IMG/VR virus record: IMGVR_UViG_3300028591_000011
Coordinates: 32,001-96,000 of that record
Strand: one strand, 5' to 3'
DNA from: a virus
Lineage: Duplodnaviria > Caudoviricetes
DNA: 64,000 nt
The notes below the pieces were generated by a model that had not been told where the DNA came from, made no database searches, and saw only the letters and a list, made by a program, of their open reading frames with translations. Below are positions 56,337 to 57,991 of the stretch, piece after piece. Numbering within the stretch: position 1 is the stretch's first letter; each line of letters opens with the position of its first letter. Both the position numbers and the translations under genes were made by a program.

Positions 56337-56837
56337 TTACTGAATATTACCTTCAAAACAGTCAATCAGAAAGTCTGCCAAGTTGTTCACGTATATGGTT
56401 TTATCTTTGATTTCTTCTTCCGAATCTGTTTTTTTCGGACAGAAATCAATCAACCATTTTTTCATCATTTCGAATTTACATTTTCGAATTGATTTTCCTG
56501 ATGCAATAGAGACAGCATATGCATTTTCAATATACATATACTTAGATCTAAAGAAATCAACCCAAGAACATACATATTTCCAATAATGTACTTCTTCTGG
56601 AGTTAAATCCTTCCAACAAATTGTGTTATAGAAATCAAAATGGTGACTATTTCCCTGTATACCAAGGATAAGTTTCGTTTGGTTTAATCGTTCTTTTTTA
56701 GAACTAAGCGGCCAAATTTGATTTTTATACACATAATCTAACCATTTCTCTTTGGCTTTACACCATTTGAGAGCATAGCTGACAACCTTCGGACATCTAT
56801 CTCGAAGCATTTGTCTATATCCAGTGTTTTTGTTCAT
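56337..56837 (-). CDS. Hypothetical protein
   Basis: 166-aa ORF starting just downstream of the tRNA. Confidence 0.7.
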   Translation of the reverse strand: MNKNTGYRQMLRDRCPKVVSYALKWCKAKEKWLDYVYKNQIWPLSSKKERLNQTKLILGIQGNSHHFDFYNTICWKDLTPEEVHYWKYVCSWVDFFRSKYMYIENAYAVSIASGKSIRKCKFEMMKKWLIDFCPKKTDSEEEIKDKTIYVNNLADFLIDCFEGNIQ

Positions 56838-56853
56838 ATTTTTGAAAATAAAG

Positions 56854-56927
56854 TGGACCCTGAGGGGCTTGAACCCACGACCTCTAGATTATGAGTCTAT
56901 TGCTCTAACCAACTGAGCTAAGGGTCC
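56854..56927 (-). tRNA. tRNA with CAT anticodon, most likely tRNA-Ile2 (lysidine type, reads ATA)
   Basis: GGACCCT-TA-GCTC-AGTTGGTTA-GAGC-A-ATAGA-CTCATAA-TCTAG-AGGTC-GTGGG-TTCAAGC-CCCTC-AGGGTCC-A. Overall pattern resembles Ile2 rather than Met; CCA is not encoded. Confidence 0.85.
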
Positions 56928-56930
56928 GAT

Positions 56931-57071
56931 TGCTCCCACTTAGGTAGGGAGCACACCCGATCACGCCGCCTCCTTGAGGCCAGTGTAATCAACAACGTTT
57001 ATGTTGCCAGTTAATTTATATCAAAGCGCTTAATGTATTTACTTCCGCTGCTGTCTAATACATTCAGGCCC
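56931..57071 (-). ncRNA. ssrA: Permuted tmRNA, coding piece (5' acceptor strand + tag reading frame)
   Basis: Begins GGGCCTG...GACAGC. Resume context TAACT-GGC. Tag frame 57008..56961 encodes GNINVVDYTGLKEAA*, with the stop in a hairpin (GATTAC/GTGATC, GCCTC/GAGGC). Confidence 0.85.
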
Positions 57072-57233
57072 TTATAGTTCATGAAAGAATGCATTAGCAT
57101 TACTTTCGTAATCATCACCTCCATAATAACCTTCTACAGTACCTAATGGAGATATTGTACCTTTTTTAAGAAGATCTTCAAAAGCTACGGCATCTTTATC
57201 GTTTACTTTATATAACACTATATATCCTTTCAT
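57072..57233 (-). CDS. 53-aa ORF inside the tmRNA intervening segment
   Basis: MKGYIVLYKVNDKDAVAFEDLLKKGTISPLGTVEGYYGGDDYESNANAFFHEL*. A-rich leader; its TAA directly abuts G1 of the coding piece. Confidence 0.6.
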   Translation of the reverse strand: MKGYIVLYKVNDKDAVAFEDLLKKGTISPLGTVEGYYGGDDYESNANAFFHEL

Positions 57234-57247
57234 GATTTTGAATTTTG

Positions 57248-57300
57248 TGGACCTGGAGGGTATGTCTCCCTCGTCCAAACAGCTTACCTCATACACGCTA
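57248..57300 (-). ncRNA. ssrA: Permuted tmRNA, acceptor piece (5' boundary uncertain)
   Basis: ...AGCGTGTAT...GCTGTTT-GGAC-GAGGG-AGACATA-CCCTC-CAGGTCC-A. CAGGTCC pairs with GGGCCTG, giving G3:U70 and discriminator A. Confidence 0.85.
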
Positions 57301-57309
57301 AGATTGGAA

Positions 57310-57430
57310 AAGAATGAGAGGTGGTATTTCCTACTGATTTATAGAAGGCAATAGAGTGCCATTAACCTTCAACAGCAGCCTCGCCCCAGCACTCTCTGGT
57401 CTGACCCACTACGGCTCTTCTCTCATTCTT
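57310..57430 (-). ncRNA. Candidate structured RNA closed by an 11-bp stem, with possible pseudoknot
   Basis: AAGAATGAGAG/CTCTCATTCTT closing stem; internal AGAGTGC/GCACTCT, GAAGG/CCTTC and AGCC/GGCT pairings that cross. Confidence 0.5.
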
Positions 57431-57698
57431 TATATTTTTCTTAGTCCAACAGTTTATTCTGGGACACGCTAAGATTTCTTTAGAGATGAATGCTTGTGAC
57501 AAATTCTGAATATAACATTGTTAATATTCTATAGCATTCAATAGTGAACTCTACAATGATCAGTCGTAGAATTCGATTTAAGGCTATTTACAGGCTCTAC
57601 AATCGCTTATTACAGCTTTTGTGGTCAGCTAATCCACTCAAGTACATAAAAACGATTGTAGAGCTTTATTTGGCCTTCAAAACAAACAGTGATACAAT

Positions 57699-57991
57699 GG
57701 CTCTAATAGGCTCTTGTGTATATGTTTCCAGCATTCTTGATATACTGTGCAGGTTTAACTCTCATATTATTTACCCGGCTCTAATAGGCTCAAACACAGC
57801 AATGTGATCTAAATGGGATATAGTTTATTCTCCGTATCTTCAGAGCTCGACATCCGAACTGGCTCTAATAGGCTCTTGTTCGACATGTTAATTCATGTGC
57901 CCGAGATAACCCCATCTCTCGACTTTAAAATACGTAATATTCGTAGTCCCTATGGATCCGTGATCTCATTCCTATTGGCTCTAATAGGCTC
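57699..57991 (-). repeat. Array of four exact GAGCCTATTAGAGCC 15-mers in non-coding DNA
   Basis: Plus-strand ggctctaataggctc at 57699, 57777, 57861 and 57977. Confidence 0.9.

Follow-up and report, generated by a model that had tools for sequence, protein, structure and literature searches.

A conserved small gene with its own RNA fold, probably relocatable cargo, inside a permuted tmRNA gene of a crAss-like phage

The intervening segment of a permuted (two-piece) tmRNA gene in a crAss-like gut phage is occupied by a gene for a small acidic protein with no match to any known family, and the RNA of this gene folds into a conserved structure of its own. The best explanation, to which we assign as a whole a probability of about two in three, is that the segment holds a self-contained, relocatable cargo cassette, which is folded on itself, cotranscribed with the tmRNA-tRNA array and released by RNA processing. 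We regard the cassette as relocatable cargo because its site in related phages alternates between the tmRNA spacer and other gaps that separate tRNA-like elements, and because it is absent from most tmRNAs of the clade.

The DNA analysed here (the window, 64,000 nt) comes from a complete virus record of 105.7 kb that has direct terminal repeats. Its nearest named relatives at the DNA level are the crAss-like phages cr273_1, cr272_1, cr131_1 and cr130_1 (Suoliviridae/Oafivirinae), which come from pig and macaque faeces. The tmRNA locus lies in an early-type region of the minus strand, upstream of a gene for an ECF-type sigma factor, and comprises the following features, listed in the direction of transcription:

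57444..57475, minus strand: truncated second copy of the 5' half of the acceptor piece, of the allele type of L019/L025/L026 (alignment)
57305..57443, minus strand: about 139 nt between this remnant and the working acceptor piece (sequence; no Rfam match)
57247..57302, minus strand: tmRNA acceptor piece, with a P2 strand, the T-arm 57272-57256 with the unusual loop AGACAUA, the acceptor 3' strand CAGGUCC (57255-57249), the discriminator A (57248) and C 57247 (Rfam RF04321 alignment, sequence, relatives)
57234..57246, minus strand: 13-nt A-rich leader of the small gene, AAAAUUCAAAAUC (sequence; relatives)
57072..57233, minus strand: 53-codon gene and its TAA, whose RNA has a conserved multi-helix fold (ORF list, homologs, dN/dS, fold z-scores, covariation)
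56928..57071, minus strand: tmRNA coding piece, with the 5' acceptor strand GGGCCUG, the D-loop analogue, a P2 strand, the tag frame 57008-56961 and a 3' hairpin (Rfam alignment, sequence, tags of relatives)
56853..56927, minus strand: tRNA-Met (CAU), directly after the coding piece (ARAGORN and Rfam)

The small ORF runs from the ATG at 57233-57231 through 53 sense codons to the TAA at 57074-57072, and the first nucleotide of the coding piece (G1) is at 57071. An earlier note on this DNA, made from the sequence alone, had described a 53-codon ORF that nearly fills the spacer, with an A-rich leader and a TAA adjoining G1, and its coordinates are confirmed in the window; the spacer length of 176 nt that it gave becomes 175 nt (57246-57072, the leader plus the ORF) when C 57247 is counted with the acceptor piece. 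An A-rich leader like that of the window accompanies the small gene in most relatives, both inside and outside the spacer. Downstream, RNase P cleavage at the 5' end of tRNA-Met would set where the coding piece ends. Several relatives have, in place of this true tRNA-Met, a tRNA-like element after the coding piece (L002:1613-1681, L003:1612-1660, L004:1606-1657, L017:1410-1472), which is either an odd tRNA whose anticodon loop has shrunk or a minihelix of acceptor stem and T-arm; either kind of element would provide an RNase P site that defines the coding-piece 3' end.

The tmRNA itself is easily overlooked. ARAGORN called no tmRNA in the window, and the tRNA-Met at 56927-56853 was the only element reported by ARAGORN and by Rfam at gathering thresholds. 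A permissive Rfam scan yielded an end-to-end match to tmRNA_permuted (RF04321) at 57302-56961 (32.1 bits, E=2e-4), which is below the gathering score of 47 that L004 (54.4 bits) and L017 (48.3 bits) pass, and in this alignment one insertion, at the intervening loop, accounts for the whole of the excess length. The pieces follow each other in the order acceptor, coding, which is also the order in the relatives where ARAGORN calls permuted tmRNAs at the syntenic site (cr273_1, tag GNINVVDYTGLQEAA; cr131_1, tag GNYNVVDYTHVA; cr130_1, tag DNYNVVDYTHVA; L026, tag GNIKVVDYTGLQEAA; L027, tag GNYNIADYTGLQEAA); the RefSeq annotation of three of these ARAGORN-called relatives is SsrA. The tag frame of the window (57008-56961) encodes GNINVVDYTGLKEAA, nearly identical to the tags of the relatives, and ends with a hydrophobic C-terminus and the stop TGA. 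A 7-bp acceptor stem (GGGCCUG:CAGGUCC) is formed in the window, and in relatives the pairing is retained through compensatory changes (GGGCGUG:CACGUCC in cr273_1, GGGCCAU:AUGGUCC in cr131_1, and also GGGCUUG:CAGGUCC), with G3:U70 always present. Together, the syntenic tmRNA calls, the tag and the covariation of the acceptor stem make the tmRNA call in the window secure. Its low scores are explained by an unusual T-loop and D-loop analogue: the canonical UUCRANY T-loop and the GG of the D-loop analogue are replaced by AGACAUA and UGUAUU (57272-57256 and 57064-57053), where all relatives have UUCGAnn and UGG. From the sequence, a U19:A56 elbow pair may replace G19:C56; alternatively, the tmRNA may be decaying. 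The AGACAUA/UGUAUU allele recurs in at least four other samples. The molecule is a minimal form without pseudoknots, and the phage encodes no SmpB gene.

The locus bears traces of allele replacement. The acceptor-piece remnant (57475-57444), which we interpret as a leftover of such an event, lies 159 nt upstream of the working acceptor piece and is absent from L015/L016 and from the run X4 strain; the stretch 57475-57305 (minus strand) is flanked by the direct repeat ATCTTAGCGTGT. As read from the sequences, the P2 strand GUGUAU of the working acceptor piece matches AUACAU in the coding piece of the window, and GUGUC of the remnant matches GACAU of the other allele. Between strains whose upstream flanks are 95-97% identical, the acceptor-ORF-coding block (289 nt of tmRNA plus ORF) is 100% identical, which suggests that it was exchanged as a unit. 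We also considered whether the ~139 nt at 57305-57443 could be a decayed group I intron, a candidate without Rfam support: RF00028 gave no match in window positions 56500-57800 at E-values up to 10. Group I introns do occur at this locus in relatives (L019:1209-2052, L020, L021, L022/L053, L075 and L111; RF00028, up to 89.7 bits), in the T-loop of the acceptor piece and apparently after loop nucleotide 1 (GAGGGU|...G|UCGAAUCCCUC), and they carry a reverse-strand ORF of ~203 aa.

Homologs of the 53-aa product are beyond the reach of the simpler searches: tblastn against 50,697 phage records gave only a chance-level match, a single-sequence peptide-pattern scan of IMG/VR found nothing, and a word-indexed protein search returned matches from the same phage only. 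An exhaustive HMMER search identified two full-length homologs (P0005, 53 aa, E=5e-8; P0007, 59 aa, E=7e-7), a profile search reported 14 clusters, all of 53-77 aa and none named, and DNA-level searches added L022-L025. Two long repeat proteins were discarded as spurious hits, namely P0004 (570 aa), whose match lies in the variable middle of the window protein (residues 21-42, GTISPLG...YGG), a stretch absent from the true homologs, and P0006 (1461 aa), which has no discrete matched stretch. The diverged homologs of 53-59 aa (51-62% identity) have conserved ends: they share the N-terminus MKGxIVLxK, a helix and a C-terminal GDDYE...F..L, and the middle is variable with a 6-residue indel.

The pattern of nucleotide changes points to selection on the encoded protein. 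The reading frame, followed codon by codon, is intact in 8 of 8 distinct sequences and in all 11 of a later alignment; the sole length change among the aligned homologs is an in-frame indel of 18 nt, and the frame is open in every copy despite 26-38% nucleotide divergence between three sequence types. Nei-Gojobori dN/dS values for the 8 distinct sequences range from 0.00 to 0.76 and are below 1 in 28 of 28 pairs. Between L019 and L020 there are 4 synonymous changes and no non-synonymous ones, and in four independent pairs the changes at codon positions 1, 2 and 3 sum to 21, 19 and 38 (pooled synonymous excess p=1e-4). The contigs L013-L016 gave no dN/dS information because the peptide they encode is identical. 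At the level of comparative sequence analysis, the ORF is a real gene under protein-level purifying selection, which bears out the earlier claim that the spacer is protein-coding: the ORF is conserved, and a check for disrupted frames turned up no broken copy.

The product could be assigned to no named family or fold in Pfam, PHROGs or ESM Atlas, and the best Foldseek match in the PDB had an E-value of 7. AlphaFold2, run with 7 sequences, gave a moderately confident two-helix model (pLDDT 73.5). A complex prediction with SmpB of Bacteroides thetaiotaomicron scored 0.00, which is to be taken as 'no answer' and counts neither for nor against binding. We speculate that the protein is perhaps an early host-takeover or translation-related factor rather than a dedicated tmRNA subunit.

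The same nucleotides also form a structured RNA, a property that the earlier reading, which took the segment as coding, had missed along with the burial of the start codon. The leader-plus-ORF RNA of the window is more stable than its shuffles (z=-3.4), and for 8 of 9 homologs z ranges from -3.0 to -7.2 against dinucleotide shuffles and, for the same 8, from -2.8 to -7.0 against permutations that keep the protein and the codons. The fold of the 59-aa type, in particular, beats permutations that preserve protein and codon usage; that of the window is not clearly better than its synonymous permutations (z=-1.5), and L017, which is without the closing stem, scores -2.3 against dinucleotide shuffles and -1.35 against synonymous permutations. 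The start codon lies within CAUGAAAGGA, which forms the closing stem with UUCUUUCAUG near the stop, and the rest of the fold consists of a second long stem and internal hairpins. In the RNAalifold consensus of 53 pairs, 94% of the cells are paired, vs. 42-56% with the partners slid, and double-sided changes occur in 10 pairs, vs. 3.8 +/- 1.5 in column shuffles (none of 500 had as many as 10) and 0-4 with slid partners, in a sample of 11 related sequences and with the structure derived from the same alignment on which it was tested. In both the minimum-energy and the centroid fold predicted for the entire precursor, the fold of the ORF is enclosed by the 7-bp acceptor stem, so that the insert need not hinder assembly of the tRNA-like domain. 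The cassette is thus both protein-coding and a conserved RNA structure, the fold being backed by covariation and by the synonymous-permutation controls. In the predicted structure the closing stem buries the start codon, which counts against efficient translation and suggests that translation is regulated or low.

This fold raises the alternative that the segment is mainly a structured non-coding RNA, i.e. a folding or processing scaffold or a stable small RNA derived from the tRNA array, with an ORF that is hardly translated. Such a reading would accommodate the strength, conservation and covariation of the fold, the start codon buried in the closing stem and the complete identity of the tmRNA-plus-ORF block between strains with less similar flanks; moreover, phage tRNA clusters can hold stable small RNAs, as in phage T4. 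However, selection at the RNA level is blind to codon position, so the concentration of changes at third positions counts against it, as do dN/dS values below 1 in every pair, a frame kept open in every copy at such divergence, a length difference that respects the frame and a moderately confident protein model. We consider it unlikely, though the least unlikely of the alternatives.

The cargo reading implies a route by which the cassette is accommodated and released. The first codons of the cassette would pair with its last codons and bring the two ends of the 175-nt insert together, so that the flanking acceptor strands of the tmRNA could still pair. The tmRNA and the tRNA array, with the cassette, would be transcribed as one precursor; RNase P would cleave in front of tRNA-Met as well as at G1, and the acceptor piece would be trimmed 3' of its discriminator and receive CCA, an addition that we propose because CCA is not encoded. 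A spacer RNA of ~175 nt, ending at its own stop codon, would be released in this way, and its translation would require the closing stem to be opened and would probably be low or regulated. Excision as a mini-mRNA by tRNA-processing enzymes is plausible by analogy, because tRNA-like elements bracket another small ORF in the same phage: two anticodon-less acceptor/T-arm minihelices of the window (40996-40944 and 40771-40737, minus strand; the second is perfect, with a TTCGAAT loop) enclose a 45-aa ORF (40920-40783), whose A-rich leader is 23 nt long and whose stop is separated from the next minihelix by 11 nt, a layout like that of the gene in the tmRNA spacer. The region is present in RNA-library contigs from four studies, with a depth no less flat than that of the neighbouring genes, as DNA carry-over would also give, and, since the material consists of assembled contigs, RNA ends, strand and level are not readable from them.

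Transcripts punctuated by tRNAs are familiar from the mitochondrial punctuation model and from the ORFs within the tRNA cluster of phage T4. The present arrangement resembles them in that short coding segments lie directly between tRNA-type structures, from which RNase P and 3' processing could release them. It differs in that a tmRNA, through its split tRNA-like domain, supplies one of the two flanking 'tRNAs', with the ORF inside a functional RNA gene and not between two genes.

A more elaborate version of this route would make the released RNA a self-folded mini-mRNA whose expression is mechanically tied to tmRNA maturation and whose role is to tune trans-translation. The acceptor and closing stems would keep the start codon shut as long as the precursor is intact; the excised RNA would end at, or within a few nucleotides of, its own stop, so that translation would terminate on a nearly truncated message; such a message would be a natural substrate of the very tmRNA from which the cassette was cut, and the small acidic protein or the excised RNA would tune trans-translation during infection. 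We judge the full scheme improbable, placing it second among the alternatives to the cargo reading.

The case for cargo comes from the position of the gene in relatives. It resides in the tmRNA spacer in the window, L017, L018/19, L020, L022 (same contig as L053), L025 and L026, and outside it in L023, L024, L027/28 and L029/30. In the latter group the tmRNA spacer is short (62-73 nt) and the gene is flanked by the tRNA-like element that follows the coding piece and by the next tRNA; in L023 it comes immediately after tRNA-Met and has a near-identical AAAUAAUAAAAAAU leader. In L024 the small ORF is followed by a tRNA-Met-like gene (410-460), not called by ARAGORN, whose similarity to tRNA-Met stops just past the anticodon (...CAGATTCATA, with unrelated sequence beyond); this gene may be truncated or interrupted by an intron. 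The closest pairs of ORFs differ in position (L022 inside and L023 outside; L025 inside and L024 outside), and therefore relocation has been recent and repeated, or recombination is frequent. Even within the spacer the placement varies, with the stop separated from G1 by 0 nt in the window, 87 in L017, 4 in L018/19, L020 and L022, ~168 in L025 and 3 in L026; the contact between stop and G1 to which the earlier note had drawn attention holds in the window and fails as a conserved trait.

The gene is also absent from most tmRNA loci of the clade. A tag-end motif scan of IMG/VR was too loose, true tmRNA loci making up 17 of 119 stretches; among these 17 loci, which belong to the EAA-tag clade, only one (L053) has the small gene, and the other 16 have unrelated spacers of 16-196 nt with no ATG ORF longer than 15 codons. 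The gene is absent from the RefSeq relatives with a tmRNA. In a strain from run X3 with flanks ~98% identical, exactly 57071-57247 are replaced by 170 other letters. The comparison of spacers across loci proposed in the earlier note thus reveals contents that are unrelated between relatives, including one strain in which precisely this spacer has been swapped. We conclude that the tmRNA spacer is a cargo slot and the small gene one relocatable cargo, not a fixed or obligate part of the tmRNA. The earlier suggestion of cargo at a neutral site fits best, given that the same gene sits in other inter-tRNA gaps of relatives.

These data also bear on the possibility that the protein is a dedicated partner of the tmRNA (associated with SmpB, the ribosome or processing) and made in step with tmRNA maturation. 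The gene is within ~400 nt of a tmRNA in every locus with enough flanking sequence and so may have some functional link with it, its stop is 0-4 nt from G1 in at least 4 of 7 spacer-resident lineages (window, L026, L018/19, L022), and the phage, having no SmpB of its own, must interact with host factors. Yet linkage is explicable by the shared synteny of a small RNA-gene array, 16 of the 17 IMG/VR tmRNA loci of the clade and all RefSeq relatives do without the gene, its position relative to the tmRNA pieces is not fixed, and the product has no similarity to SmpB or any known family. The partner protein envisaged in the earlier note accordingly lacks support, and we hold this reading to be more doubtful than the two above. 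Finally, that the ORF is a chance open frame in a non-coding spacer, as its 71% A+T and a product named in no database might suggest, is refuted by the conservation data, i.e. same-size homologs at 51-62% identity with conserved ends and dN/dS below 1, as well as by shuffles of the spacer, in which a complete ATG ORF of at least 53 codons arises with a frequency of 0.05% (probability 0.0005), and by natural spacers of 168, 186 and 196 nt in relatives, whose longest ATG ORFs have 5-9 codons.

Permuted tmRNA genes are known from alphaproteobacteria, some betaproteobacteria and cyanobacteria (Rfam RF04321; PMC11915505). The cargo-bearing gene of the window resembles them in the order of acceptor piece, intervening segment and coding piece, in G3:U70, the T-arm and a tag frame ending in AA, and in an intervening segment expected to be removed by tRNA-processing enzymes. 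It differs in its occurrence in a crAss-like phage, in a segment that holds a conserved, protein-coding and structured cassette, in a T-loop that reads AGACAUA rather than UUCGAAU, in the lack of pseudoknots and in a score below the Rfam gathering score. The tmRNA database paper, which includes 79 phage tmRNAs, distinguishes standard, intron and permuted gene forms, and lists the latter two separately with no combined form (PMC11915505). It describes a tRNA-Ala inside the intervening sequence of one permuted tmRNA as a 'unique feature' (PMC11915505); there, as here, the intervening segment has a functional gene as its cargo, but the cargo of the window is protein-coding and, in relatives, is found in other slots as well. 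The tmRNA T-loop is likewise a known site of group I introns, some of which carry homing endonuclease genes (PMC11915505), and relatives of this locus have such introns themselves (L019-L022). The cassette shares with them a protein-coding sequence embedded in a tmRNA gene and removable at the RNA level. Unlike them, it lacks a ribozyme core and encodes a product much too small for an endonuclease, and it is not an intron because nothing is ligated after its removal. Literature text searches returned no report of a protein-coding intervening segment in a permuted tmRNA, and the database paper mentions no protein-coding case in such segments (PMC11915505).

Intervening segments of permuted tmRNAs are usually treated as disposable; this locus indicates that the segment can serve as a cargo slot, with a cargo gene that is both coding and structured and that moves between tRNA-flanked gaps in crAss-like phages. 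It offers a natural system for asking what size of insertion a split tRNA-like domain tolerates, whether tRNA-processing enzymes release translatable mRNAs in Bacteroidales phages, and how coding and structural constraints are reconciled within ~170 nt. For annotation, it is a warning that a tmRNA with a large spacer or an unusual T-loop can escape detection at the thresholds of ARAGORN and Rfam.

Other contents of these slots deserve mention. In L025 the small gene is followed within the spacer by a second ORF (716-862; 48 aa, MEEKLIDLAG...), whose TAA adjoins G1. The ORF-less 196-nt spacer of L119 resembles the sequence after tRNA-Met in L029 (300-480) and L030, with the stretches GGATTTACAGGTC and AAATGCGAAATGGTTAGAGAGTAATCT in common; on this sequence similarity, a second, non-coding element seems to use both kinds of slot as well. 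In cr130_1 (L004:1386-1466; identical in L008) the ~100-nt spacer looks tRNA-like by eye: it has an acceptor-like stem and a T-arm whose loop is TTCGACT, it encodes CCA, and UGUUAUA resembles an anticodon loop. We do not claim it as a tRNA, as ARAGORN makes no call on the spacer alone. The corresponding position in the close relatives L006 and L011 is taken by ~60 nt of unrelated spacer. Finally, cr131_1-type phages have a hairpin with the conserved loop motif GGTTCGTGAGAATAG in the tmRNA spacer and once more shortly before the next protein gene (L003:1440-1475 and 1712-1742, L004:1726-1752, also L006, L011 and L012); it may be a promoter, a terminator or a processing signal.
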